Below are positions 5,759 to 46,782 of a stretch of 46,782 bases of DNA, piece by piece; the first letter of the stretch is position 1; every line of letters starts with the position of its first letter. The translations under genes and the position numbers were made by a program. This DNA comes from Folioceros fuciformis (taxonomy: Eukaryota), in contig JBNGIO010006320.1 in assembly GCA_049999805.1 (NCBI GenBank), positions 130,842-177,623 of the forward strand. The letters are read 5' to 3'. A model generated the notes under the pieces. It was not told the origin of the DNA. It worked only from the letters and a program-made list of their open reading frames with translations, and did no database searches.

Positions 5759-5858
5759 NNNNNNNNNNNNNNNNNNNNNNNNNNNNNNNNNNNNNNNNNN
5801 NNNNNNNNNNNNNNNNNNNNNNNNNNNNNNNNNNNNNNNNNNNNNNNNNNNNNNNNNN
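5759..5858. other. Assembly gap (100 N) beside a poly-C / (CCT)n low-complexity run
   Basis: 100 consecutive N preceded by CCT repeats and a C homopolymer. Confidence 0.98.
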
Positions 5859-7593
5859 GAGCAGCTCCGTCGGCGTCTCCTTGCCGGAGCCGGGCCGCCC
5901 GCGGCCCGTAAAGACAGTGTCGGGGAAGGCAGCCTCGCTACTGGAGGGCTTCATATTCACCGCTCCGGAGCCCCGTCTCTAGAGAGAGAAGAAAACGTGT
6001 CAGGCCAAAAAAACCAAAGTAAAAAAACGGTGTCGCTACAGCACTTTTTTGCAGCGACGTACCACTTAACTCTCTGCGCCTGCCGCGGTCTCCTTTCTCT
6101 GGCCCACAAACTCTTCCCCCTGCTCCCGATCCCCTTTTCCAGGGCCGACCCTCCGCCCCCATCCATCCACATCTGGTACGTCCGCCTCGAGTCGTCTCGT
6201 CTGCACCGAACTCGAATTATCAACACATAAGCTTCCCTTCCCGAATCCATTCAACGGCATCAGCATCACCGAGCAGAATTAGCTCCACATCAAACTGGAA
6301 ACTTACAGAGAGCCAGTGGACAGAAACGGAATCACTCAGACTAAAGCTAGCAAGCATGCGTCACCACAACAGCAGGAACCAATCCATTCACAACCAATGC
6401 TTTCCTTACCTTACCGAACAGTGTATCGTTGCATCAGCAGGGATTTGGTACACAAACTTAGACACCGGCTTGCATCCATCGCCAAGGCAGCAGCTTAGCA
6501 GCAGCAGCAGCAGCAACAGGAAGAGCAGGTTTTCACCTTTCACTGCACGCACAAGGGATAAGGTGCTTGTATCGTGAATCGGGCTTGTTTGCTGGCCTCA
6601 TGTTCGTCCGTCCCGCTCTGCTGCTTCCTTCGATCCTCTACTCTCCTCTCCTCTCCTCCGCGCTCTGCGTTGCGTACAGTATTAGCCCCTGCATGAAAAT
6701 CTTCCTCGGGCGGGGCCGCGTGAGGCCGGATTTTGCTCAAGGTACAGTCGTGACGACAGGGAGTGTCAGTTCCGCCGCGCGTGAAGCGCACGCTCTGCCG
6801 CCGCGCCCTCTGTACTGCCCACCACTTTTTTAAATGCCGGCATGGAATCCCGTTTCACGACGGGACTCCCGTTCACGGTCCTCCGTTCCGTCCTCCTCAT
6901 CTTGGTCCGTACGACACGTTTCCTTCCCCTCCGCCCATTCTCTTTCTATCCCCGACATTTGGTATTTTAAAGCAGAATATATCAATAAATTAATATTCAC
7001 AATTACTTTCTTTTATTTTTTTAGGGTACATCCGTACGAGTACAATTCCGTCAAAAAAAATAGTTTCATATTCCAAACCCTAAAACCTACGTAGTTAGCT
7101 AGATATGTGGGAGACTAGAAGTTAATTATTGAAAAATGTATATTAAAACTACTCTTTCATCAACACCCACATCCTACTATCTTTTTGTCGTGATATAAAA
7201 CTTCTCCCAAGACTTAAAATTTTTCTATTTCTTATCTTATTTCAGGTAATTATATCTTATTATCTACATATAAGAATTATATATATATATAATTTTTATG
7301 CATGTATTGTATTAATTATTATCATTAAATCTTCTTTAAGATCAAATTACTGGTTCTAAAATATGCAATTCTCTTTTCTATGCATGCTTATTGAACTAAT
7401 TCGGTGGAAAAAACAGTTTCATTAGACAACTATTTACACCTAGCACTTCTTTCGAATGTGCCAAATTTATTGGAAAAAATGAAAATATTTTTCCATTAAA
7501 TTGACACATCCAAACATAGAATTGGCTGAATCCTCTTTGAATATAAAAAGAAAAAGCTATGTGATAGTTTTTTTCTTGGAAAAAGAACAAAAA

Positions 7594-8166
7594 ATGCCAA
7601 AACCTTATTCTCCCAAGTTATATTCCATCCGACCAGCTCACAATAGACGATACACAGGGAAAGCAGGTAATGTAGATCCTTATGATTCTGATATCCAGCT
7701 ACCTCCTCCCCCTGAAAGAGTTAAAGTTCCATCCAAGCAGTTAGATATTTACACTGATCCCACAGTGGGTGGGTTACCACATGATGATCCTCTTAATCCT
7801 CGTAGCAAGTACTGTCCAATCCTATATTCCATGGCTCCTGCCCATAACAAAGATTACTCTCTTAGGAAGACGTACCTAACGAGATTAGATGAATGGCCAT
7901 CAAAACCAGATGAAATCCATCGTTATGATAAAGTTAAGTGGACTCCCATAAAACCTGATACTAGACCAAAGGCAAGGCCTGAGATCATGAGAACAGATGA
8001 AAGACTTAAAACCCTTCCGAAATTCCAAGTAAAAAAGTACTCCTTACAAGAGCCACAGCAAGATAAAGCAGCCAAATTGGATTTTGAAAAATTCAAAAAA
8101 CTTAGTCCACATGCTTTTGCCACAATCAATGGCTGGGCTAGCCGTGAAAGAGATCACAAAAGATAA
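7594..8166 (+). CDS. Unrecognised 190-aa basic, Pro/Lys-rich protein with an internal repeat
   Basis: A 573-nt open frame in otherwise stop-rich AT-rich DNA, with an AAAATG start. Duplicated motif PKLYSIRPAHNRRY / PILYSMAPAHNKDY. Confidence 0.6.
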   Translation: MPKPYSPKLYSIRPAHNRRYTGKAGNVDPYDSDIQLPPPPERVKVPSKQLDIYTDPTVGGLPHDDPLNPRSKYCPILYSMAPAHNKDYSLRKTYLTRLDEWPSKPDEIHRYDKVKWTPIKPDTRPKARPEIMRTDERLKTLPKFQVKKYSLQEPQQDKAAKLDFEKFKKLSPHAFATINGWASRERDHKR

Positions 8167-8560
8167 CTAGATTTGCATTTTCTTTGTAGATTAAATTAGG
8201 TTTACATGTGTTAGTAATATTTATCACAAATTAAATTATATATTTATTCATTTTATAGTATCTTCGTTTTCTAGCTTGTTCTTATGTGGTGTTATGTTGA
8301 TAAGGTTTTGGAAAAAAAAATCTAATAAAATGTATAATGTTTGTTATTAGTAATTAATATATTATGATGGTTGATGCATAGGATGCATGTCAAGTACCTA
8401 TAGATGTCAAGTTATATAAAAAAATAATATATGTTTGGAATATTTGTTTGGTTACAATCACTATTTCTTGTAAATTATATCAAATTTATTAGCTTCATTT
8501 CAATTCCATTATAAAAAAACAGAGTTTAATTACTTCTCCAACATACATATTCAAGCTTGC

Positions 8561-11500
8561 ATGATGATGGTAAGCCCTTCTATATATAGATAAGATATCC
8601 TCTCAATTTATTCATTTTGTCTTCAATTTATATATTCTCATTATCATACGATGATGCGGGTAGAATAGTAAGTTGTTTCTACAAATGTTGAGTTATAGGC
8701 AAAACAAGCACAAGATTTGAATACTGTGATAAAGAATGGCGATTTAAATAAAATAGCTTTTCTTCTAGATCATGGTTGTGCGGTGGATTTCATAAACGAG
8801 GTGATTTATTTGGTCAGTTAGACCTAATTTAGTTTACATGCTTCTACACACTATTCAAAATCATGTACTAGGGTTTTCTCTTTCTGGGTATGCAGGAAGG
8901 AGACACTCCAATGCATGTTGCAGCAAAACTAGGAAATGATAAAGCAATCACACTTTTGCTTAACAAAGGCGCAAAAATTGATGCCAAAGATGCTTGGGTA
9001 AGATGAAGTATGTTTACCATGGTAAATTGGAGTTGCACCCCTTGTTATTTTTTATAAATGTGGAAGTCCTTACATTTTCATGACAGGCAAGTTGGACACC
9101 ACTTCATCATGCAGTTTGGTTGGGTGCAACAGCAGTAGTGACAATTCTTATACAAAGAAATGCAGACAAAGATGCCCAAGATAAGGTAGAATTTAAGAAA
9201 CATTGCTTGTGAAAGGAACATTGTTTCTAAGTACGTCGAAATCCATAATCTATAGATTTATTGAGCATATATGATGTTTTATAAATATGAGCATGAATGG
9301 ATTCGGAAACATGCAGGAGGACAATGCTATGATTATTGATGTATCAAGCCTATGGGCAGGAGGGGCAAACACCTCTACATCTAGCAGCAATGAGGAATAG
9401 ACTTGTGGAAATGCTCATGCTTCTCGAAAGCCATGCTAATATCAGTGCACGCGATCAGGTACATAATTTCGTACATTTATTACATATATTAATCAACCTT
9501 AATTTTGTTGGAAATCGAGTTAATTTCCGTTGTGCTCAATGGATTGTGTAGAAATTCTTCACTCCACTGCATACAGCAGCTTCATTTGGAACACCTGAGA
9601 TAGTAACAGTACTATTGCAACGTGGGGCTGACAAAAGTGCCAAGACTAAGGTATGTATTTGCGCACACAATTGTTACTTCTCAATTCTATGCAAAAACAA
9701 AAAGTTATACTCCCCCCCTTGCTAGGATGGAAAAACAGCAAAAATGCTTGCTGAAAATGCCAAGCGAACAGATATAGTTAATGCAATCAATCGACATATT
9801 GTAACACCTAGAAAGGCAGGATCCACGGTAAGTGCAACAATCTCCAAATCAAGGATGATCTTGTTCTTGCATTAGAGGCTACAGTCTGAAACATGTGAGC
9901 AAAGTATGATCAAAATAACTTGTAGAATATTTGTTCCCCACTAGATGTCCAGTGAGGTTCAAGAGCAAATCGCTCAAGTGACTGCAGCAACAGCGGCAGA
10001 ATCATCTATAGCAAGAGCACAAGATGAGATAGTTGCACGTTCTTACTCCCTTAAAGTGGAAGCATTAGAAGATTCTTTAGCAAAAGCTAAGGCCAAAGAA
10101 GAGGTTGTTGAAAACAAAAGAAGAGAGTCTGAAGGGAAACTTACCTCCATTTTAAAAAAATGCCATGATTTAGAAGCAAAGCTTGCATCTGAAGAAAAGA
10201 AGCGCAAAGAGGCTGAAGCAAAAGCTAGAGCTCTTGAGACCCAAGTAAATGATGCAATTGTTTTAGCTCGTGAATCTGAACAATTAAGGTCTGAAGCTGA
10301 AGAAAAGGCTACTCTAGGAGATAAAATTAGAATAGCTTATGATGCACAAGCTACTGAGTCAACAAGAAAAAGATCTCAAGCTGAAGCTATTGCAAATGAT
10401 CACATCAAAAGGACATCTGAAGCAGAAGCCAAGTATTTAGAGGAAGTGAACAAAAGGGTACAAGTAAGTGATTTGTTTTGCAGTTTCATGCCATTATTGA
10501 AAACTAACTCTATTTCTTTAAGATACTAGTGAGAGTAAATATGCAAGTGCATATATCAAATTTCATTATACTATCTTTGAAAAAATGATATATTTTTTGT
10601 AGGTAGAAGCATATGCCAACGAAGAAAAGAAGCTTAGAATGAGTGAAGAGAGCAAACATAAACTTGAAGAAAAAATGAGAATTGACCTTCAAGCTAGAAT
10701 AAGGGAACTTGAAGACAAATTAAGTGGTGCTAATGAAAGAAGAGCAAGTGATAGAAGAGCATCTAATGCAGAAGGAGGGTTAGGGGGTATGAGATTCTTA
10801 CCCAAATTCAAGATAGTTGGTGAAGAGGAAGAAGCTGAAGGCCGTAGAAAGCTTGAAAGGGTGGCTGAAGATTTGGAGGCAGAAATGAAGAGGAGGCAAA
10901 AAGCTGAACAACAAGCTTTAGAGGCTGAGCAGAAGTTGGTAGCGGCTGAAAATAAACTTCGAGATTATGAAGAACGTTTTCACATGGAGATACATTCAGA
11001 TGCCAAATTGCAATCAAACCCAAAACATAATGAAGCATCAAGCTCTGGAAGGAAATTAGGTAAGTGTCTTCGATACTATGTCATCTTCCTCTTCCTCCTC
11101 CTGTATATAAAATAACCTAATGAATTATTTGATTGATTGAACGTAGGAGCTGATCAAGTGTCGACGACTTGACAGGCTTGGTAGCCCTCCTTGGAGGAAA
11201 GTTGAGTGAAATGCTCATCATCTTGCGGAGTGAAGAGAATAAAAGAGCAGACCTAGAAGCTCAAGTAGCTCGGTTGTTAGGAGGCTCCAATAGTTCCTCT
11301 GCAGAAGTAAGTACCACTACCTTCCGTTCAATTGATGCTTCCAGTAGGCATAAACCTAGTAGGCATAAACCTAATACATTGCAACAATGTTTCTCCAGGC
11401 TCGTATAGGAGAACTAGAGAAGCAACTGCAAGAGGAGAAAAGAAAAAACTTGGAATTGCAAGTAAAATTGAACAAGAAAGTATACTTAGGAAGGCTTGAG

Positions 11501-22528: not shown

Positions 22529-23623
22529 TCAAGCGACTGCCTTGCCTGTGCCTGCCTTGTGATCATTGCCGCCGAAGATGGTTTTCTCGAACCAGTCAAA
22601 AATCTCAGGAGCCGGAATGCTAGTGATGGAATGTATTCCGTGAGCCACCATCGTCTCCTGCTGGACGTGGCTCTGCCACAGAAACGTGCCGTCGCTCTTC
22701 ATAGGGAGAACATTCCTTGCCGCAAGAGCCTTTTCCCAAGGTGTATCAGGGGGGTATATCGTGAGGTACCCGTCGGCATCGACATATTCCTCCTCAACGT
22801 ACACCTCATGAATCTTCTCTGCAATCTCGAGGTCTATGCCGACGATTCTCTCCGAGAAGTAGTACTTGGTGATGGGCAGGGGCGGCAGCGAAACCTGTCC
22901 TACTGGCACTCCCAATTTATTCAGGGCATAGATAGACCTGGCTACCTGCACCTCCATCTCCTCGTCGCGGACCATGTGCGCAAAGAAGGTGGGAGGGAAC
23001 TGCACCCTGTCTGCCCGGTGGAACACTTCAAGAACTCCCGGAGACACTATGAGAGCCAGAGACTTCACATTCCCGAGGTGGAGCGCCAGAGAGGAGCTGA
23101 AGTTGCCGCCTGCTGACGATCCAATCAGGGCAAGCGGGAGGTGACTCAGGTTGTGCTGCCCCCGCCACGTGCTCAGGATTAGCGTCACGTCTCGAATGTC
23201 TTTCGAGAATTGCACAGGCCAGTTCTGCCACTCGGGTTCCAGGCTTTTGATGGCTATCACAGCGTACCCTTGCGACAGCGCAATGCTGGTGAGGCGACGG
23301 TCTTCGGGGAGACCGTAGCATATGGGGCAGCCAGGCCCCGCATCAAAGTAGCTCAACGGAGCCAGGTTCCTCCCGTGGGCCATGAAGATGACTGCCCTTG
23401 GTTTCTCCGGTATCTGCCACACCACATTCCTTTCCAGCATGACCTCCCATGTGCCATTCGTCATTTTCTCCTTGGGTGGAAATGGAGTAGCATGGAAACT
23501 CTCCTCCCAGATGGCATCTTGTACTCCTGCACCGGCTGTTTCGCTAGAAGATCGTAAGCAGGAATTGCAAATGCAGATCGTCACGAGCAGCAGATGACGG
23601 CACACGCTGCTGGTTGTAGTCAT
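22529..23623 (-). CDS. Secreted/membrane-anchored alpha/beta-hydrolase-fold protein (intronless, uncharacterised plant family)
   Basis: 364-aa ORF with a signal-peptide-like N-terminus, VIFMAHG, CPICYGLPEDR, nucleophile elbow GSSAGG, FPPTFFAHM-RD and a C-terminal His (HGIHSITS). Confidence 0.8.
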   Translation of the reverse strand: MTTTSSVCRHLLLVTICICNSCLRSSSETAGAGVQDAIWEESFHATPFPPKEKMTNGTWEVMLERNVVWQIPEKPRAVIFMAHGRNLAPLSYFDAGPGCPICYGLPEDRRLTSIALSQGYAVIAIKSLEPEWQNWPVQFSKDIRDVTLILSTWRGQHNLSHLPLALIGSSAGGNFSSSLALHLGNVKSLALIVSPGVLEVFHRADRVQFPPTFFAHMVRDEEMEVQVARSIYALNKLGVPVGQVSLPPLPITKYYFSERIVGIDLEIAEKIHEVYVEEEYVDADGYLTIYPPDTPWEKALAARNVLPMKSDGTFLWQSHVQQETMVAHGIHSITSIPAPEIFDWFEKTIFGGNDHKAGTGKAVA

Positions 23624-23880
23624 CTCCTCCTCTTCGGGTTCAGAATCTGAGCTCGTTCTCCAGATCCTCTTCTTTGCAAACGTCGGGAGGCCAACCTACT
23701 TCAATAATTGGGAGTAATAAATACTACGGGACGTACACTGGAAGAAATTATGGATGATACTAATTTTTGGAAAATACTATATATACAGACGCTCCTGAAT
23801 TGTATGGGGATACGCAAGTGGTTAGTAAGGCGCTGTCTTTCGGGTCAAGGATTCATGATCTGCACTAGCATGGACTTTCC

Positions 23881-25726
23881 TCACGCTGAAAGATGTCCCA
23901 TAGCAAAGCTACAAGCCTTTGGAGTTGCGCTCAGGCTGGTGATCCAAACTTCGTCTGCTTTCACATTAGCGTCATCGTCGTTTCGATGCCAGCTCCAGTG
24001 TGCGTGTGTTGCGTTCGCTATCCTGAGCTGCCCATGTCCAAAGCTAGCTTCGCGAAAGAGTGAGTATGATGGTTGGTCCAAGTACCTGGCACGGCGGCAG
24101 TGAATTAGGTGAGTGTGAGATGGCCAGCAATTACGACATTCGACACCACAACTTGCCAGCTTCAGTCTCCGACCAGGCATTGGAGACAGTTCACTATCAA
24201 CCATGACATGAAGAGAGACATCTGTACCAACCTTTTGGCAAGGCCTTCCCGATTACCCCCATCTCCAATCACAATCTGTACCATGCCACAGGGATCCTCC
24301 TTCCCACCGTAGACCCTAGCCTGCAGGGATTTTCACCCAGTCAAAGAGCAGGCCACATAGAACCAACTCTTTAAGAACGGAACCACTCTTTGCTCTATTT
24401 CGGCCTGCAGTACTTACAAAGCGCTCATACGCATGCACATGGCCTGCAAACATGATATCAACATGCGCAGCCTGGAGCAAAGGTTCCATTGCTGCCATCA
24501 TTGCATCACCCTCCCCCTGATGAGCTGAGTTGCTGTTGTACCAGGGTGCATGCAACACAGCTATAAGCCAGGGAGTCTTCTTTCTGTCGACCTTGGCAAG
24601 ATCTGCCTGTCACCAGCAGTGAAGCAGAAAGGTCAGTTCAATATTGATGCAAGACTCCGCCCTCCGTTCGTTCACAGTAGAAGCAAGCTGCACTAGCCGA
24701 AACAGCACTTACCTGGAGCCAGGAATATTGGCTCGATTTAGCATCGAAGTCCGCATATGATCCCAGCATAACAACATGAACTCCAGCAACCTCAAATGAG
24801 TAGTACAGGTTGGAGGTGGAGCCACTCTCCAAGTATGGCATAGACCACCGAGTGTTGTAAGCTTTGAATGATTCAATGATAAAGGGAACTGCCTCTCTGT
24901 CATGGTTTCCTTCGGTAACCATCCATGGCCTCGAGCTGGCCAAAGGTGACATCAGCTGCCCGAACGAATCCCACAGAGGTTGATAGTAATCTGCGTAGGA
25001 TAGGTCACCTGCAAAAAGCAGGAGATCGTAGTCTGACGCTTGAATGTGTTGAAGAGTCGAGGTAGTCCACCCAGTCTGTCCCAGATCACCTGCACAAATA
25101 GGCCATCCTAAGCCGCCATGATGGTTCTATTTGTACCGGCAAATTAAGACATGCCGTAATTCAAAACCCATAACAAGGAACGTACCAACAACTGCAAAAG
25201 TGATGGGCACGTCAGGTCCTGGTGCTGGAGGAGTCCTGAAACTGTACTCCTTGCCCGCATTTCCACAGCGATAGTAATAAGTTGTGCTCGGTTCAAGGGG
25301 ATTGGTGTCGGTCCCAAGCACCACGTGATGACTGAGTCCAGATTTATACAAAAGAAAGGAGTAAGAGGAGCTCTGCCCATTCGCAACAGCGTCGTAAGAC
25401 CCAGATTTGGTTCCATATTCCACAGAAGATGGGCCATTGGAGCTAGACGTAATCCACGAGACTTTCATCTTGTTCAGCCCAGCCAGTGACACATGCACCT
25501 ATGGAAGAAGGCGGTTAGAAAAGGATCACCAATGATTCCCAGGCAACCACATCTGTTCCTATCGTCGTACCTGCTCAGGCTCTGTTGTAGACGACCCGAG
25601 ACTCGGAAATTGCAGTGTCCTGCGAGTGTTGGGTCGCACATAGGACCCTTGTGCTAGCAACAAGCCCATGCCAAGGCAAAACACCAGAATGAAGCTCTGC
25701 CTCACTGCCACGCTCTGGGCTGCCAT
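23881..25726 (-). CDS. Purple acid phosphatase (PAP18-like), secreted
   Basis: Signal peptide, PEQ|VHVSL FN3-like domain, metal-ligand motifs [45 protein letters not shown]; multi-exon. Confidence 0.92.
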
Positions 25727-38063: not shown

Positions 38064-41000
38064 TCATTTATCGTCTCTCTCTGCAACAAGCAACCACAAC
38101 TGACTTAACAACCTTTAGTAGACGATACCAAGATTAGGAACCCTAAAGCGGCAGGTGAACTGGTACCTGATATTTGGAGGAGAACAGAACCATCCGAAAC
38201 TTGGTCCCCAACTGCACCGATAGCTCCCTGTATTACGCCAGAAATTGGCGCTCTCACGACATGCTGTATGCAACCACGAGCCACAGGCCGCCAAAAGATT
38301 CAGACCCGCTGCTGGGCGGTATAACAGTCATAATGAAAGTGCTCAAGAGACAGATCGACTACCTCCATCTTCATGGCCTCCAAAACCAGTAGCGGATCAT
38401 CGATCTGTACGGCGGCTCCACTCACTACGTACACTTTGACAATACGGCCTGACATCGGTGATGTCACAGCTCCTGGAACTTGAGAGCCTGTCGTTGCCTG
38501 CCTCTTGCTGGATTCTTCTCCAAGTACCTCTCTAACACCGAACATATTCACAGGCAAGCTGAACTGGTGATGCTCATCGCCAGCCCACAAATGTACATGG
38601 TTCATGGCACCCTACAGTTGCCATCCGACGTAACACGTATCAGCAAATTGTCCCTCGGACGTACTTCGTGGCAAGTTCTAAAATCAGCCACACGCACCTC
38701 ATTGTAATGTGCCAATGTCGCAGACGATGACACACCATCGACGTTGACTACGAGGTCTTGGCCACCATTGCCCACATCTTTCCGACTGATGATTGATATT
38801 TGCAATGATTGCTCCGCTTCAACCTGCAGTTGCACGAGTTCTCATCATACGCACGACCTGACACACTAAGCAATGCACGAATACAAGCGCAGAGTACAGA
38901 CCTGCACCGCAAACGTCAAGTCCCTTTTGTGGGTAACTTTAACATTGAACGGGATCACGAAATTGTGAGCAGCTTCATGCTTCCAGTCGAGCTGAACAAT
39001 CTGCGATAAGGTGTGATTGAGTCTGAAGCCATTCAGGGAAGGATGATTCCAGACTGAACCTCTCCCCTGATGTTTGCTTGCTATAAAGCCACAAAGTATG
39101 CCACAGTTAGCCCCGCCAGTGAAAATTACAAGGCACAGTGCCTCAGTCACTGAGATCATTACGCAGTTAGACCTACAGACCTTTCAAGGAAGTCTCATTG
39201 TCACCCGCACAGATAGCAGCTGCTGCAACGGCTGCTCCAACCTTCACACCGGGCCTTCTCAGAGTTGCCTCCTTCAAATCAGCACCACTTAACTCCGGTT
39301 GTGACGGCAACAGCTCCGACTTATGCCGTTCAATAAAATGTGTCTCAACCTCTCCAGCTTCAAATGCTAAATTCGAGGCGAGTGCCTTGAGGAAGTCAAT
39401 ATTGTTGGGTAGTCCAGCAATCTACAAGCCAGTTTTCTTTCAGGCCCTCTCCATCATCACTTTCTTGACGACACGCCTTCACCACCACATCACACATAAG
39501 CTGTATCTGCTATATCCTATCTCCATCCATGCACTTGAAGCCATGAGCGACCCAGGCGCACCGCTATACAAACTCCACACACTACAGGAGGCTTAAAAAG
39601 GGGGTGTGAAAAACCTGAAAGTCTGACAGCGCGGAGTGCAGTTTGGTCAAAGCCGCTTGACGGTTGTGACCCCAGGCTACTAGCTTAGCTATCATAGGGT
39701 CGTAGAACACACTGACAATGTCTCCACAGCTGACACCCGTTTCCACTCTTACTGATACATGACACAAACGTGATTCAGAAGTTGTGCACCTAAAGGTTGC
39801 CAAACAGCGTGAGAAGGGAGGTCGACTTGAGAGCTGTAACCTGTCTTGGAGGTTGAGGGCGGCTGAAAATGTCGCAACGTTCCAGAAGCAGGCAGAAACC
39901 CTTTCGGCACGTTCTCCGCATAAATACGAGCCTCAAAAGCATGGCCTTGACACATTTGAACAACAGTTCGAGTCAAGATTGGGCCCTGGTAAAAATTAAC
40001 AAAGCGTAGATGACGTCAAAGGGTACATACTGTACCAGAAAGACCAATCTCATGCTGCTGAAGAGGAAGCGGTTCACCATTTGCAACTCGTATCTGCCAC
40101 TCAACTAGGTCTTGTCCAGTGACCATCTCCGTCACCGGGTGCTCAACCTGCGCAACCAGTACATAAACCATTCGTATCAGCATAGGATTCGTACAACAAG
40201 TCAACCAGCTGGCACTGCATCCCCAGTACTGAAGTTCGTAAGCATTGCAAATTACTTCGAGGTACACCCTGCTCACGCTTGCAAACAAACAAGAAAAGGC
40301 TATCCTTAAAAATGTTCAAACCTGCAGTCGTGTATTCATTTCCATGAAGTAAAACTCTCCTGTAAGAGTATCCACAATGAATTCCACTGTTCCAGCACTT
40401 TCATATCCGACAGCCTGTTCAAAGAAACCGGGATCAAAGATGCAGCTTATCTTGCCTGCCAACAGCTACATACTGACAGAAGAGGCACAGTGAAAATGCA
40501 AGGAGATGGTGACCTTTGCGGCGTCTACTGCTGCCTGACCAATCCTGTTACGAAAATCTTCAGTGATGTGAGGCTGCATGAAAGCTAAAGAAGTCTCTGT
40601 TAGACAAAGTCACAGTTCAGTACCAATCTACACAGACCACAACGAGTCTTCCCATCAACTCTCGAAAGGCGACCTCCTACCGCTGGGGATTCCTCAATAA
40701 TCTTTTGATGCCTTCTTTGAACGCTGCAATCCCTTTCAAATAGGTGCACAACATTCCCATGCTTATCCCCAAATATCTGAAACAACAGACAACAAGGCTC
40801 TTTCAGCTAGTGGTCTATTGGCTACTATCTCCTGTCTCTGGATGCAGGTCAAACGGGTTGAACCCCTGCAGATCAAGTCGGACATTCACCAGGACCAGGA
40901 AGACAAGAGTTCGACTGGGACTACCTGCACTTCTATGTGCCTTGGTTGAGACAGGTATTTCTCGATGAGAACTTGATCATTGCCAAAGGCAGATTTTGCC

Positions 41001-42179
41001 TCACGCTGAGCTCCTGCTAAACTCTCCAAAAACTGGTTGGGATTATGAACAATTCTCATCCCCTGAAAAAGTGAGAACAAAACGCATCAGAGTTAGAACC
41101 AAGACCCTACATTTGACTGCAATCGGCCGCCTCCTTTACTCGACGTACCACCACCTACCATCTATGGTGCCATAAATGCATATACCTTTCCTCCACCGCC
41201 CTGTGTGGCCTTGATCAGCACCGGATAGCCAATCCTATCTGCTTCGCGCTTCAGGACTTCAGTGGTCTGATCGTCTCCATGGTATCCAGGCACAACAGGC
41301 ACACCCGCAGCAATCATCAAGCGCTTAGAGACACTGCGCACCAAAAAAAACACTTGAAAGAATCAACGGAGTTTACAAGCGCATCCATCATGGAAGTGGC
41401 ACCATGATTGTGCATGTTCTCACCTCTTATCTCCCATGTCATTTATGGCGGAGGACGGCGGACCAAGGAAGGAAATGCCCTGTTCCTTGCACTTTTCAGC
41501 GAATTGCATGTTCTCTGAGAGGAAGCCGTAACCTGGATGCACTGCCTGGACCAAACACGAAATCCAAAGCACGTCAGCAAAAACGCAAATAACTTGGGCA
41601 CACTAATCACACGCAGGAGCGAGGCACCCTCACCTGTGCGCCAGTCAATTTGACTGCCGCAAGAATGGCGGATCCATTGAGATAGCTCGCCGCGGCAGTA
41701 GCCGGGCCTATGAACACTGCTTCATCCGCCTCCCGCACGTGCATTGCCAACCTATCCTGCTCACTGTACACGGCTACAGTCTTCACTCCCATCCTCTTGC
41801 AAGTCTTAATAACGCGGCATGCGATCTCACCCCGGTTGGCGATCAGCAGTTTCTTGATCGGTTTCGCCCTAGGCAAATCCAAGGCCCCACCAGATGCAAC
41901 TCCAAAATCCGAGACCCCGCGGGTACTAGAGAAATCCTTCACACCGGGTAACCATCTTCCGACCGCAAACGGCGGACGCAAAACGCGCAGCGAAAGCTGA
42001 GGACGATTCAGCTCAGAGACAACACATAATGCCCGCACCAGCAAACCTCGAGGATCGAAAACCCGACCAGCTGCTCCACCATACGATCCTATGCACCGAC
42101 ATCCAGGAGGCACATAAGCCACACCCGAACAAGAACGCTGCCCGCACAACAGAAGGTGCAGAATTCTCTTGCGGCCCAT
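38064..42179 (-). CDS. MCCA: 3-methylcrotonyl-CoA carboxylase alpha (biotin-containing) subunit, mitochondrial
   Basis: Presequence, then [88 protein letters not shown] and the biotinyl site EAMKME. The last micro-exon (ERDDK*) is tentative. Confidence 0.92.
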
Positions 42180-42275
42180 GGTGACAATGGCTTAGTCTCA
42201 CACAAGCAACGTCTACACCAAAATACGCATCTACACCACGCGCCTCCCGAGGCCTGTCTGCCTGCCCTGCCCTTC

Positions 42276-42458
42276 CTACTTATTCAGCCCAATGCGCTGC
42301 GCGACCGAGGGCTTCAGCGGCTGCTCGTTGCACTGCAGAGACGCGGCCAGCTGCTGCTCCGAGGACATGCCAGCGGCTGCGGCGTTCCTCCGCGCCTCGT
42401 CGTATTCTTGCTTATCCTCCGCCTTCAGCTCCAACCGCGTAGGCTTCCGCCGCAACAT
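42276..42458 (-). CDS. CDC26: Anaphase-promoting complex subunit CDC26 (60 aa), immediately upstream of MCCA
   Basis: The N-terminus MLRRKPTRLELKAEDKQEYDEAR is the CDC26/APC12 signature, and the protein ends in RIGLNK like plant CDC26. ATG at 42458, TAG at 42276. Confidence 0.9.
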   Translation of the reverse strand: MLRRKPTRLELKAEDKQEYDEARRNAAAAGMSSEQQLAASLQCNEQPLKPSVAQRIGLNK

Positions 42459-42706
42459 CCTCGACCTCGACCTCGACCTCCTTCTCCTCCCCGCACCAAC
42501 CACGTAGCGCAGGAGCAAGGAACAACAGCCCAGCCGATGAGGCTGACAAAGCCAGTTGTCTTGCCTTTCGTCAACTGGACCCTCCACACAAATAGAGGCG
42601 ATGTATCTCTAGTTTCTCGAGGTTTGCCTGCAAACTGTCGATTCAATAAAAACGAGGATATACATATATGATATGCACTAACCGGATGTGTACGGACACG
42701 AAGAGG

Positions 42707-42715
42707 GCCACGTGG
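42707..42715. promoter_or_regulatory. G-box (GCCACGTGG) in the divergent CDC26/MCCA-catalase spacer
   Basis: Extended G-box with the palindromic CACGTG core in a 441-nt head-to-head spacer. Confidence 0.5.
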
Positions 42716-42899
42716 GGAGAGTGCGAAGTGGAGCTCCACTTGGCTAATTCTCGTCGTCTGCCCACCGGCTTACACATTTGGCATCGGCCTTCAGCGGTGA
42801 CTCCATGTCCAGCACACTGCAAGCCACGAGGTCCAGCTCAAGATCGAGCGCTTCTCAGAGCTGCGAATCTCTTATGCAATTTGATCTCGCCGTCCCACC

Positions 42900-45221
42900 A
42901 TGGATCCCAAGGCACCATTTGTTTCCGAAGCTTCCACCTTTTGCAAAATCTGAATCAAGCTTAGCGGAAGGATTGCCTGACAAGAGGAGTCCTAACCGAA
43001 TCGCGGGTTGTGCAGATGCGGCCTTCGAGTGCGCACAACTCGATGCACTTCACTACCAACCAAGGCGCGCCTGTGTGGAACAACAATTCCTCGCTCACCG
43101 TGGGCCCTAGAGGTGAGGCTCATTGCAACTTGCAATCGTAGCTGGACGTGGTCCAGGAGAAGAAGTGGAGAAGGTTGTTGATGCTGTGGTCAATTGCGAG
43201 GGTTGTGTAGGGCCGGTGTTGTTGGAGGATTACCATCTGGTGGAGAAATTGGCGCAGTTTGATCGGGAGCGGATCCCGGAGAGAGTGGTGCACGCGCGGG
43301 GATTCTCGGCGAAGGGATACTTCGAGGTGACGCACGACATGTCGCAGCTCACGTGCGCGGATTTTCTGAGAGCGCCGGGCGTGCAGACCCCGCTCATCGT
43401 GCGCTTCTCCACCGTCATCCACGAGAGAGGGAGCCCGGAGACGCTCAGGGATCCCCGGGGCTTTGCGGTCAAGTTTTACACCAGGGAGGGCAATTTTGAC
43501 ATGGTTGGGAACAACATTCCTGTGTTTTTCATCAGAGATGGGATGCAGGTACGTGTGAAGCTGGTTGTGGTTGGGTATGGGGGCGGTGGTTGAAACGTGG
43601 ATGCGTGGTTGGTGCAGTGGATTACTTGTGGATGGATTGGATGTGCAGTTCCCGGAGATGATTCATGCGCTGAAGCCCAATCCGAGGACGCACATTCAGG
43701 AGAGCTGGAGGATGATGGATTATTTCTCATTCGTTCCTGAGAGTTGCCACATGTTCACGTTTCTGTTCGATGACTGGGGGATTCCCGCTGATTTTAGGCA
43801 CATGGAGGGCTTCGGTGTCCATACTTTTAAGGTGAGAAGGGTGACAGTGTGACGGTTTTGGGGTGATGATGGAGGTCTACTGCTAGGGGGATCACGTGGA
43901 TGCTCACGTCGTGAATGTGGGCATACAGTTGATCAACAGCGAGGGGAAGGAGACATATGTTAAGTTCCATTGGAAGCCGACCTGCGGGCTTAAGTTTCTG
44001 CTGGACGATGAGGCTATCATTGTTGGTGGAACCAACCACAGTCATGCAACTAAAGACCTCTATGACTCAATTGCCGAGGGGAACTTCCCGGAGTGGAAGC
44101 TGTACGTACAGACCATGGACCCAGCGACTGAGCATCAGTACGAGTTTGATCCACTCGACGATACCAAGACTTGGCCTGAAGACCGCTTTCCTTTGCAGGT
44201 ATGCGTACATGTCTCATGAGCTGTCTCATCATGGCTAATCTCTTGTAACCTGTCTACACGTTAACTCTTGTGTTACTGTGGTAACAGCCAGTGGGGCGGA
44301 TGGTGCTGAACAAGAACATTGACAACTTTTTCAATGAGAACGAACAGCTTGCTTTCTGCCCTGGAGTCATCGTGCCAGGCATCTACTACACGGATGATAA
44401 GATGTTTCAGACCAGAATTTTCTCCTACTCAGACACACAGCGTCACAGGCTGGGTCCGAATTATCTCATGCTTCCAGTCAATGCTCCCAAGTGTCCTTAT
44501 CACAACAATCACCATGAAGGGTTCATGAATTTCATGCATCGGGATGAGGAGGTAACAAAGGTTGCACTGCCTTTCTTTCGTTTGGAGGTTTCCATATGCA
44601 TTCCTGACTTACATTTGTCTGGTAAAACAGGTGAACTACTTCCCGTCTCGGTACGATCCAACTCGTCATGCACAGCGGACCCCTGTACCGAGGAACCAAG
44701 TTTCAGGAGTTCGGGACAAGGTCGGAAGAGTCCTGTCCTATAATTTGAAACGAAAAACCCCGCAATAGTGACCGTTGTCTTCGCTAAGCTTGGTTGTATA
44801 CCTCCAGATCCACATCGACAGGGAGAACAACTTCCAGCAGCCCGGAGAACGATATCGCTCTTGGCCGAGTGACAGGTAATGACAAAACGAGCAGTTCGTG
44901 TATTGCTCCTCATGGTGGCTCTGGACTACATTTCCCGCCCAACGATCCCGTGTTGTGAATTTGGTTGCCCACAGGCAGGACAGGTTCGTAGAACGCTGGG
45001 TGAAAGCTCTCTCGGATCCGAAAGTAACGCACGAGATTCGGAGCGTTTGGTTGTCGTACTGGACACAGGTAAGTTGTTCTGTAGTTCATTCACGGGAACC
45101 CACCAAAGCTTCAGTGATTGGTAGACCTGATACGTCGTTTCCCTGTCTTCTGATGAATCAGTGCGATAAGGGGCTCGGTCGCAAACTCAATACCAGGTTG
45201 AATGTGAGATCTGCTATCTGA
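42900..45221 (+). CDS. CAT: Catalase (plant monofunctional heme catalase), 10 exons
   Basis: MDPK|MRPSS...[71 protein letters not shown]-terminal RLNVRSAI*. Confidence 0.96.
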
Positions 45222-45423
45222 ATCCGGGCGTTCATGACTCGTTAACCTATTAACTTGCTGGGTTTTGGCAAGTTAAAATGCTAGCTTATAAGTTTCGTTT
45301 GAGTTCTGTGCTTGCCTTTCGTACATAAAGGTTGTTTGGTTTGTGTACAGACATACCCGCTATCGATACCTCAGCATGGAAATGATATGTTAACCTGCGT
45401 GTCGAGTATGAAACGGACCTTTG

Positions 45424-46782
45424 TTATTTTACATCCCACTCACACTTAATTTGAGAGGGAGACTCAAATGATGTGAGCCACCTCTCTACATCCCGCTTCT
45501 TCGATCGCAGAGCACCTTGATTCTGTCTTTCAACTGCAAACGGGCTTTGCATACATCCTAGAATCCCAATTACCATGCCCTTGACCAAGGATTTCCCTTG
45601 GACTTCACTATGCCTGCCCCACCCAGTAACAACTTCGATCACTCCAGGAGAGATTGCATCGCGGTCACCATCAACTAGGAGCCCATGTAATTTTTGCAGC
45701 CAGAGCAAGAACGTCACGAGGGCAGTACCCAACTCCATTCCGTGGAGATCAACTCGGAAGGGTTGCAAAACTGCGTCCGCCAGGAGACCAAGAGCGAGCA
45801 ACTCCCGCACCACACTCAACTCGCCGTCTTCGGCATCCAAACTCTGCAGCACGAGAACAAGGTTCTCTGGACATCGTGACAAATGCTTAAGGACAGAGGC
45901 AGGTGTTGGTGATGCATTCCCGTCATCCAATTCTCCTCTGATCGCCACCCTGACCCTCTCCAAAACGGGATCAGAAAATGTTAACTTCGTTTCACCTTCA
46001 CAATGCAGGCTGCTGGCCATCAAATTAAGCATCGGACACGCCTTAGAAAGGGCATTCCAGGTACGCACGGATGGTGAAACTCCTGAAGCAGCCATAACGT
46101 GCATGATGTGCAGCATTCGGTCATACTGCTTGGCCTGCGAGTAGGCAGCAATATTCATGTTATACGCCGCTCGATCCACCTCCAACCCTAAACCCCTCAT
46201 CTCCGTGAACACCACTTCCATCTCTGTCAGCAACGCGCCCTTCCCGAAGGCCTCGAGCACCACTTTGTAGTCATCAGAGGACGGCCGTATCCCTGCCGCC
46301 TTCATACCCGCCAGCGCCTTTCCCGCTTCCAAGGGAAGCTCCAACACACTATAAGCCCGGAGCAACGCTCGCTGGCTCATCACCACAGCACTTCCAGCCT
46401 CCCGCATCTTCTCATAAACTCCAACCAGGCGCTCGCGAAGGCCGCACCGCGCATAGCTCTCGATCAGAGCACACTTGAATCGCAACGTGTGCTCCGCACT
46501 CCGCCCTGCTGAGACCTGGAGACACAAGGCTTCCGCCTCTTCGACCTGATCCATCTTCGTGAGCACAGCCACCAGCCGCGCCTGCAAGGCCACAGTGTCC
46601 CTATACCACGCCACGTCCTTCCCGCTGCGATACACCTTCAACCACCATCTGGCAAGATGCCCGTCAGCCCGCAACACAACTTGCTGCAACACCCGGAAAC
46701 GTAGACTGAAGACGCACCATGAGAGCCAGCTCCCACTCGTCCTGCTCCAGCAGCGCGTGCAGGAACTCCAGATGAACTGGCC
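45424..46782 (-). CDS. PPR-SMR protein (At2g17033-like), 3' part; starts beyond window
   Basis: Several PPR motifs, then an SMR domain VDLHGM...EVVTGWGRHS...SPFAVERQNQGAL. Probable intron 46636-46717 joins the upstream exon ...EWELALM. Confidence 0.85.
   Translation of the reverse strand, partial: GQFIWSSCTRCWSRTSGSWLSWCVFSLRFRVLQQVVLRADGHLARWWLKVYRSGKDVAWYRDTVALQARLVAVLTKMDQVEEAEALCLQVSAGRSAEHTLRFKCALIESYARCGLRERLVGVYEKMREAGSAVVMSQRALLRAYSVLELPLEAGKALAGMKAAGIRPSSDDYKVVLEAFGKGALLTEMEVVFTEMRGLGLEVDRAAYNMNIAAYSQAKQYDRMLHIMHVMAASGVSPSVRTWNALSKACPMLNLMASSLHCEGETKLTFSDPVLERVRVAIRGELDDGNASPTPASVLKHLSRCPENLVLVLQSLDAEDGELSVVRELLALGLLADAVLQPFRVDLHGMELGTALVTFLLWLQKLHGLLVDGDRDAISPGVIEVVTGWGRHSEVQGKSLVKGMVIGILGCMQSPFAVERQNQGALRSKKRDVERWLTSFESPSQIKCEWDVK

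Follow-up and report, generated by a model that had tools for sequence, protein, structure and literature searches.

The locus analysed here raises the question of whether a small cell-cycle gene and a long gene for a mitochondrial enzyme are expressed from one and the same messenger RNA (mRNA). It is part of a stretch of 46,782 nucleotides (nt) from Folioceros fuciformis (GenBank assembly GCA_049999805.1, contig JBNGIO010006320.1, positions 130,842 to 177,623 of the forward strand), i.e. the window, from whose first letter all positions below are counted. On its minus strand, an open reading frame (ORF) for CDC26, a small subunit of the APC/C (anaphase-promoting complex/cyclosome), is closely followed by the gene for MCCA, the alpha, biotin-bearing subunit of 3-methylcrotonyl-CoA carboxylase, a mitochondrial enzyme of leucine breakdown. 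A first-pass annotation had taken CDC26 for an upstream ORF (uORF) of MCCA and had proposed a candidate bicistronic mRNA. The most economical, albeit unproven, reading is that CDC26 and MCCA may indeed share one transcript, to which we would assign a probability of roughly 0.5. Such an arrangement would have a precedent, since, according to published passages, CDC26/TTM3 is a bicistronic locus with CDC26 as ORF 1 whose conservation extends deeply across land plants and green algae (PMC11291117, PMC7943633, PMC3426882). The elements on which the argument turns are the following.

42276..42458, minus strand: CDC26 ORF, 60 codons plus TAG stop, supported by ORF listing, Pfam, PDB, homologue ends and G+C content at third codon positions (GC3)
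42366..42368, minus strand: internal in-frame ATG (Met31 of CDC26) with G at -3 and T at +4, a second AUG for a scanning ribosome
42180..42275, minus strand: inter-ORF spacer, 96 nt, G+C content (GC) 0.57, four in-frame stops, no poly(A)-type hexamer
42213..42230, minus strand: mini-ORF MRILV-stop in weak context (T at -3, C at +4), ending 33 nt before the MCCA ATG
41634..42179, minus strand: MCCA coding exon 1, 182 codons, ATG at 42179; presequence, then start of the biotin carboxylase N-domain
38064..42179, minus strand: whole MCCA gene, 13 ORF segments with collinear domain matches, 3' end approximate

A complete CDC26 ORF in front of MCCA

The CDC26 ORF runs from an ATG at 42458 to a TAG at 42278-42276 on the minus strand and encodes 60 amino acids (aa). 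It matches PF10471 (ANAPC_CDC26) with E=2.9e-8 and 34.9 bits vs a gathering score of 24.5, its residues 1-37 corresponding to profile positions 1-37 of 74. Five distinct PDB sequences align to it at E<=1; residues 1-28 align to the human CDC26 chain of a solved APC/C structure (4ui9_G) and residues 1-25 to the human CDC26 chain 3hym_A (E=1.6e-4), and there is a weaker match to Schizosaccharomyces pombe Hcn1 (2xpi_B, E=0.0067). The N-terminal segment seen in these structures is presumably the part that binds APC6.

A search of 5.8 billion proteins found four relatives at E<=0.001 among 25 candidates of near-equal length. One of them (P0001), a protein of 60 aa encoded on a 12,463-nt contig of another organism, is 90% identical to the window CDC26; a second (P0002), likewise of 60 aa, is 57% identical and stems from a 1,905-nt contig, and the remaining two are isoforms of one locus of Diphasiastrum complanatum. 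In an alignment of seven CDC26 sequences, i.e. the window ORF and six homologues, the start MLRRKPTRLELK is common to all, MLRRKPT at the start and RIGLxK at the end are kept in 7/7 and 28 columns are invariant. With both start and end positions conserved across the alignment, the window ORF is thus of full length. It also bears a strongly coding codon signature (GC3 0.85 vs 0.43 at second codon positions, GC2), and this GC3 represents the strongest codon bias among the ORFs measured in the window. Judged by these features, the ORF is a real and intact CDC26 gene, and the complete 60-aa ORF originally reported at 42458-42276 is borne out by its Pfam score and by the ends of its homologues.

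The same evidence bears on the idea that the ORF is a relic or a purely regulatory uORF, with working CDC26 being produced from a CDC26-TTM3 or other locus elsewhere. With just 46.8 kb of the genome in view, a second copy of CDC26 is conceivable, and Diphasiastrum does have two CDC26 loci. However, an ORF that is complete at both ends in comparison with six homologues, 90% identical to P0001, above the Pfam cut-off and endowed with the strongest codon bias measured makes a relic improbable. So improbable that it can practically be set aside is a chance ORF or an assembly artefact that juxtaposes the two genes: the former is excluded by the Pfam, PDB and homologue evidence and, with respect to the latter, the window does contain one 100-N gap, but this is found at 5759-5858, 36 kb away, and the region 41500-43100 shows no repeats or signs of a junction beyond five short matches of chance size (three direct families and two inverted pairs). 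As these matches are all that was found there, a repeat or mobile-element origin was rejected as well.

The gene downstream of CDC26 is long and split. Over 13 minus-strand segments (42191 to 38108), BC_N, ATP-grasp, BC_C, BT and biotinyl domains follow each other in this order, with the AMKM biotinylation motif being present as LEAMKME in the ORF 38303-38611; since these 13 segments are collinear, the gene must have at least a dozen introns. The MCCA-specific BT domain (PF19331) remained below its cut-off (E=0.00082, 19.4 bits vs 27, with one exon-sized piece scored), and the assignment to MCCA rather than PCC alpha rests in part on what we take to be typical of the plant enzymes. Exon 1 ends with a GT donor at 41633 and is followed by an intron 1 of 88 nt and by exon 2 from 41545. 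Position 41607, previously given as the lower limit of the locus, is the end of the open frame but not of the exon, which stops at 41634, the frame reading on into intron 1. PF00289 matches residues 108-183 of the exon-1 ORF. A TAA is located four codons upstream of the MCCA ATG, and 42179 is therefore the sole in-frame ATG of exon 1. The presequence (window 41859-42179, minus strand) comprises 107 aa before the BC domain and is rich in arginine (13 Arg), with nine R+K vs two D+E in its first 60 aa. When 1.84 billion representative proteins were searched with this presequence, a single match at E<=0.001 was obtained, a 23-aa stretch of a 450-aa protein that was judged spurious.

Spacer, reading frames and start codons

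The distance from the CDC26 stop to the MCCA ATG is 96 nt on the same strand, exactly as first described. The two ATGs are 279 nt apart and therefore in frame. That this does not lead to readthrough was correctly recognized from the beginning, but instead of one further stop in the spacer there are four (TAG 42233, TAG 42215, TGA 42200 and TAA 42194), and a CDC26-MCCA readthrough or fusion protein is ruled out by altogether five in-frame stops between the ORFs. For a fusion generated by splicing, inspection of the sequence by eye gave no support: a GT at the stop site joined to an acceptor-like TAG 67 nt downstream would lead into a frame that stops after ~40 codons.

The tiny ORF that had been noticed in the spacer (42230-42213) was found again and is in frame with the ATGs of both CDC26 and MCCA. 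In fact, all five ATGs in the 487 nt of 42665-42179 (at 42665, 42458, 42368, 42230 and 42179) are in one frame, which with so few sites is suggestive only. The other two frames contain no AUG from 42665 to 42179, but are open past the MCCA AUG, such that any AUG in them would open an overlapping ORF. Since the upstream AUGs are all in the one frame that closes five times, each upstream ORF shuts before the MCCA AUG. As far as can be read from the sequence, there is nothing in this frame layout that blocks initiation at the MCCA AUG.

The MCCA AUG at 42179 has the context GTCACCATGG, in which ACCATGG is optimal, in line with the strong context ascribed to it in the first-pass annotation. The context of the CDC26 AUG is TCGAGGATGT, with A at -3 and T at +4. 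AUG depletion was tested with 2000 dinucleotide-preserving shuffles per region. The 203 nt before the CDC26 AUG are free of ATG (2.37 expected, P=0.046), which would fit a 5' leader, and over the whole 482 nt of 42661-42180 three AUGs were observed vs 6.37 expected (P=0.048).

A structured RNA, e.g. an element resembling an internal ribosome entry site, was considered for the spacer and rejected, its fold being no more stable than that of shuffled sequences (z = -0.08; equalled or surpassed by 80 of 200 shuffles), and no Rfam family was detected at E<=1 in 41500-43100.

Proposed expression from a common transcript

Also the absence of TTM3 from the window, as claimed initially, was confirmed: the CYTH domain (PF01928) matched none of the 118 stop-to-stop ORFs of at least 100 aa and none of 273 shorter ORFs, including all 251 N-free ORFs of 60-99 aa, with the scan setting aside ORFs of 60-99 aa that touch the 100-N gap and covering exons of less than 60 aa in the MCCA region only. 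Starting from the observed identity and integrity of the two genes, their geometry and frames, the AUG contexts and this absence of CYTH from the window, we infer a common transcript, the position of its start, translation of both ORFs and possibly a swap of the partner of CDC26 during evolution. Intact CDC26 would occupy the 5'-leader position of MCCA, and transcription would start in a region of 440-560 nt that is shared with a divergent catalase gene on the plus strand, the latter beginning with an ATG at 43016 or possibly at 42900:

42459..42899, no strand assigned: stretch separating the CDC26 ATG from the divergent catalase gene, a candidate shared or bidirectional promoter plus leaders

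On the resulting mRNA with both ORFs, the cap-proximal AUG would serve CDC26, and MCCA would be made by those ribosomes that scan past three upstream AUGs. Alternatively, scanning could resume after termination of CDC26, 96 nt before the MCCA AUG, or of the mini-ORF, 33 nt before it. An mRNA carrying both ORFs is probably the source of CDC26; that MCCA protein is mainly made from this same mRNA seems to us a somewhat less than even proposition. The arrangement would thus represent the CDC26-first bicistron of plants and green algae, with MCCA replacing TTM3. In its strictest version, i.e. a land-plant lineage that has swapped the second cistron, produces CDC26 and MCCA from one obligate bicistronic mRNA and has no CDC26-TTM3 transcript, this scenario is tentative, and we would rather lean against it.

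Common transcript or independent transcription units

Several observations weigh against a common transcript of CDC26 and MCCA, and a number of them speak for two separate transcription units that are tightly packed and overlap, possibly with a minor bicistronic isoform that arises by read-through. MCCA transcription would then start inside the CDC26 ORF or the spacer, resulting in a short leader, and the poly(A) site of CDC26 would be found inside exon 1 or intron 1 of MCCA.

With respect to transcription signals, none of the 17 poly(A)-type hexamers searched is present in the spacer, the sole hexamer nearby being an AATAAG at 42284 that overlaps the last CDC26 codons and could serve an independent CDC26 unit, and the 400 nt preceding the MCCA ATG contain no TATA-type match. 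The statement that such signals are missing from the spacer was therefore correct, but as an argument for a bicistron it carries little weight. Four of the six secure 3' flanks in the window (those of PC-esterase, PPR677, TIC20, PPR376, F-box and a 364-aa ORF) are also without a poly(A) hexamer within 300 nt, as are 8/12 if less secure comparators are included, among them the last MCCA ORF, which is followed by two more small exons and hence does not provide a genuine 3' flank. Likewise, seven of eight gene starts in the window have no TATA-type match. Since both kinds of signals are mostly missing from other genes here, their absence in the spacer says little, and they could be present yet invisible.

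A similar correction applies to the argument that the spacer offers little room. The 96 nt stand, but they carry less weight in a genome so compact that independent units could overlap. In a tandem pair on the minus strand (window 23623-23883), the stop of a purple acid phosphatase (PAP) gene is only 257 nt away from the next ATG, which belongs to a 364-aa ORF without Pfam match. With an AT-rich dip to GC 0.20 and a TATATA at -162, this gap shows that, locally, the region between two tandem genes can be very short and yet look ordinary. Moreover, the last catalase ORF (plus strand) and a PPR gene (minus strand) converge at 45221-45424 with stops ~200 nt apart, and their 3' untranslated regions (UTRs) must therefore be very short or overlapping. 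Within the CDC26-MCCA spacer itself, the second half is T/G-rich (GC 0.40-0.47), which again would be compatible with independent units.

On the other hand, 96 nt leave no room for a promoter between separate 3' and 5' UTRs, so that two same-strand mRNAs would have to overlap, which would invite transcriptional interference. The spacer has no AT-rich dip, unlike the 257-nt gap of the PAP pair, and its GC of 0.57 exceeds the values for the 96 nt that follow each of the 12 comparator stops (0.38-0.55; 0.44-0.52 for the six secure ones). The sole deep AT-rich dip between catalase and MCCA is found at ~42640-42700 (GC 0.25-0.28), ~215 nt upstream of the CDC26 ATG. In these respects the spacer appears unlike a gene boundary, and these are softer points that would favour continuity of the transcript across it. 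In addition, bicistronic expression of CDC26 is known in plants and green algae from the published passages mentioned above. Altogether, two independent units are a serious possibility, although one that we would not call probable.

For a common transcript, also the translation signals are less clear-cut than the anatomy of the locus. The anatomy of the candidate bicistron held up, whereas its translation signals are mixed. The context of the CDC26 AUG is not weak, with its A at -3 being ordinary for genes in the window, and two more AUGs intervene between the CDC26 AUG and MCCA. The latter number is below the 3.57 expected between the two start codons, but not significantly so (P=0.20). Both the context and the lack of significant depletion would suit independent units. 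In published passages, by comparison, weak ORF 1 contexts mark the leaky-scanning bicistrons of green algae (PMC11892635), and Arabidopsis uORFs of >50 aa are described as targets of nonsense-mediated decay (NMD) (PMC11291117). By that standard, strong NMD would be expected for a 60-codon uORF placed ahead of a gene that has a dozen introns or more. Finally, the codon signature of the MCCA presequence is atypical, with GC3 (0.49) below GC2 (0.57) and below the GC3 of other ORFs (0.55-0.85). The exact start of MCCA is therefore less secure than the ORF suggests, and the true start or the exon structure in the presequence may depart from the simple ORF.

Evidence from relatives is of little help to a common transcript. 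A search for relatives of the MCCA exon-1 ORF among proteins of 104-333 aa (8000 scored, 7501 passing) returned, among the best 120 of these 7501, none with a query coverage above 57%, none covering the presequence and none from the 12,463-nt or 1,905-nt contigs that encode P0001 and P0002. As an attempt to establish linkage this carries little weight, since bacterial biotin carboxylases took up much of the list and the proteins searched were limited to 104-333 aa. CDC26 fused to another domain was not found either, with one match at E<=10 among 268 longer candidates; this lone longer form is a 128-aa Diphasiastrum protein of the second locus that contains the CDC26 domain only. Taken together, the exon-1, presequence and fusion searches would neither support nor refute a conserved adjacency of CDC26 and MCCA.

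In Diphasiastrum complanatum, CDC26 is the annotated coding sequence (CDS) of two loci of its own (O6H91_10G037200 and O6H91_19G021000), and its proteins P0003, P0004 and P0126 (98-128 aa) are stand-alone CDSs, a situation that would also be expected for independent units. Annotation of CDC26 as its own CDS suggests that no longer ORF is present on these transcripts. The partner of CDC26 in non-seed plants may thus be absent or variable, as these data hint. None of five window proteins was present in the protein collection in an exact look-up, and therefore the absence of the window CDC26 from it says nothing about annotation.

Two side observations concern further CDC26 relatives. The N-terminal extensions of the Diphasiastrum proteins vary from isoform to isoform and resemble the in-frame reading of a leader, i.e. 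they appear spurious. In a protein of 86 aa from a 1,132-nt contig (P0125), the CDC26 Met is preceded by 26 open codons without a start codon; its CDC26 is near one end of the contig with ~870 nt beyond, a size that would fit a transcript with CDC26 and a small ORF.

Comparison with known bicistronic systems

As in the CDC26-TTM3 locus of plants, a small CDC26 ORF comes first here and is located on the same strand shortly upstream of a much larger and unrelated enzyme ORF, and the N-terminus of CDC26 is conserved. In contrast to this locus, ORF 2 encodes MCCA with its biotin carboxylase and biotinyl carrier rather than a CYTH/TTM polyphosphatase (0/391 ORFs), and whereas plant CDC26-TTM3 is a known bicistronic transcript, the arrangement with MCCA is a candidate. 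Published passages describe the CDC26/TTM3 locus as an NMD target, with translation of TTM3 aiding the expression of CDC26 (PMC11291117, PMC7943633, PMC9768141), and list the CDC26 uORF as homology group HG30 of conserved-peptide uORFs (PMC3426882, PMC11062462).

Confirmed polycistronic pairs of green algae have median inter-ORF distances of 260 and 212 nt vs 3,410 and 3,264 nt for other collinear pairs, and their downstream ORFs are small, with medians of 852-876 nt (PMC7896298). Measured against these distances, the 96-nt spacer favours a common transcript. AUG depletion in algal bicistronic pairs is reported to be consistent with leaky scanning (PMC11892635). With the leaky-scanning bicistrons of Chlamydomonas, Chromochloris and Auxenochlorella, the locus shares a short inter-ORF distance, a small ORF 1, a strong ORF 2 context and the absence of out-of-frame AUGs before ORF 2. 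It differs from them in an ORF 1 context that is not weak, in a depletion of AUGs between the ORFs that is not significant and in an ORF 2 that is long and intron-rich instead of small.

A change of the downstream partner is documented for another group of uORFs. HG8, which encodes a small conserved CX9C protein, is described as having different downstream ORFs across taxa and as being free in some (PMC3426882). The HG8 (twin CX9C) dicistrons resemble the locus in that the main ORF is preceded by one for a small, conserved protein acting in trans, with the changing partner being of the type proposed here, but HG8 is a different protein family, and nothing ties it to CDC26 or MCCA. Finally, like an ordinary regulatory or conserved-peptide uORF, CDC26 is placed in the leader of a main ORF and would dampen its translation. 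Unlike conserved-peptide uORFs, which act in cis via an arrest peptide, it encodes a recognizable subunit of a complex.

Literature searches combining CDC26 with methylcrotonyl-CoA carboxylase found no paper among the matches listed, and neither did a combination of CDC26 with Marchantia, with the supplements of the CDC26-TTM3 and algal papers being outside the search. For CDC26 with Selaginella or Physcomitr-, the sole match was a 2010 APC survey with EST (expressed sequence tag) identifiers for CDC26 only.

Why a different second cistron would matter

The pairing of CDC26 with TTM3 is described as conserved from green algae to flowering plants. The primary paper on this pair (Lorenzo-Orts et al. 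2019, Nature Plants) is said to report no apparent biochemical link between the two proteins, which raises the question of why they are coupled; the Arabidopsis locus is At2g11890. If CDC26 and MCCA do share a transcript, the locus would separate ‘CDC26 needs TTM3’ from ‘CDC26 needs any translated downstream ORF’. In the strictest version given above, it would represent a natural experiment showing that CDC26 requires some well-translated downstream ORF, whichever it is, and not TTM3 in particular, for instance for polysome loading of the mRNA and for blunting NMD. Moreover, translation of a second cistron on a nuclear mRNA of a plant would here, in a rare instance, concern a housekeeping gene that is long and intron-rich. 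What would be new is MCCA as the second cistron, the plant CDC26 bicistron as such being known. If, instead, the two genes are independent units, they would represent an extreme of gene packing and a warning against inferring bicistrons from spacing alone.

Surroundings of the locus

The gene content of the window is that of a land plant, with genes for EPF, PPR, TIC20, F-box/KIB1-4, purple acid phosphatase, THOC7 and catalase. For the divergent catalase gene, the start is ambiguous. The ATG at 43016 directly follows an acceptor-like gtgcag; 116 nt upstream of it, CCCACCATGG surrounds an ATG at 42900 from which M-D-P-K would be read, similar to what we take to be the usual N-terminus of catalase. 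This stretch could be a first exon of four codons, but its donor would be non-canonical (GC).

Elsewhere in the window, the 100-N assembly gap at 5759-5858 is surrounded by GC-rich sequence of low complexity, in which both strands carry ORFs rich in Ser/Pro/Gly. It is followed by an AT-rich block at 7000-11200 with a GC of 0.30-0.39 vs ~50% in the remaining window, which contains, on the plus strand, long coiled-coil-like ORFs at 9945-10529 and 10639-11115 and an ankyrin-repeat exon at 9333-9548.

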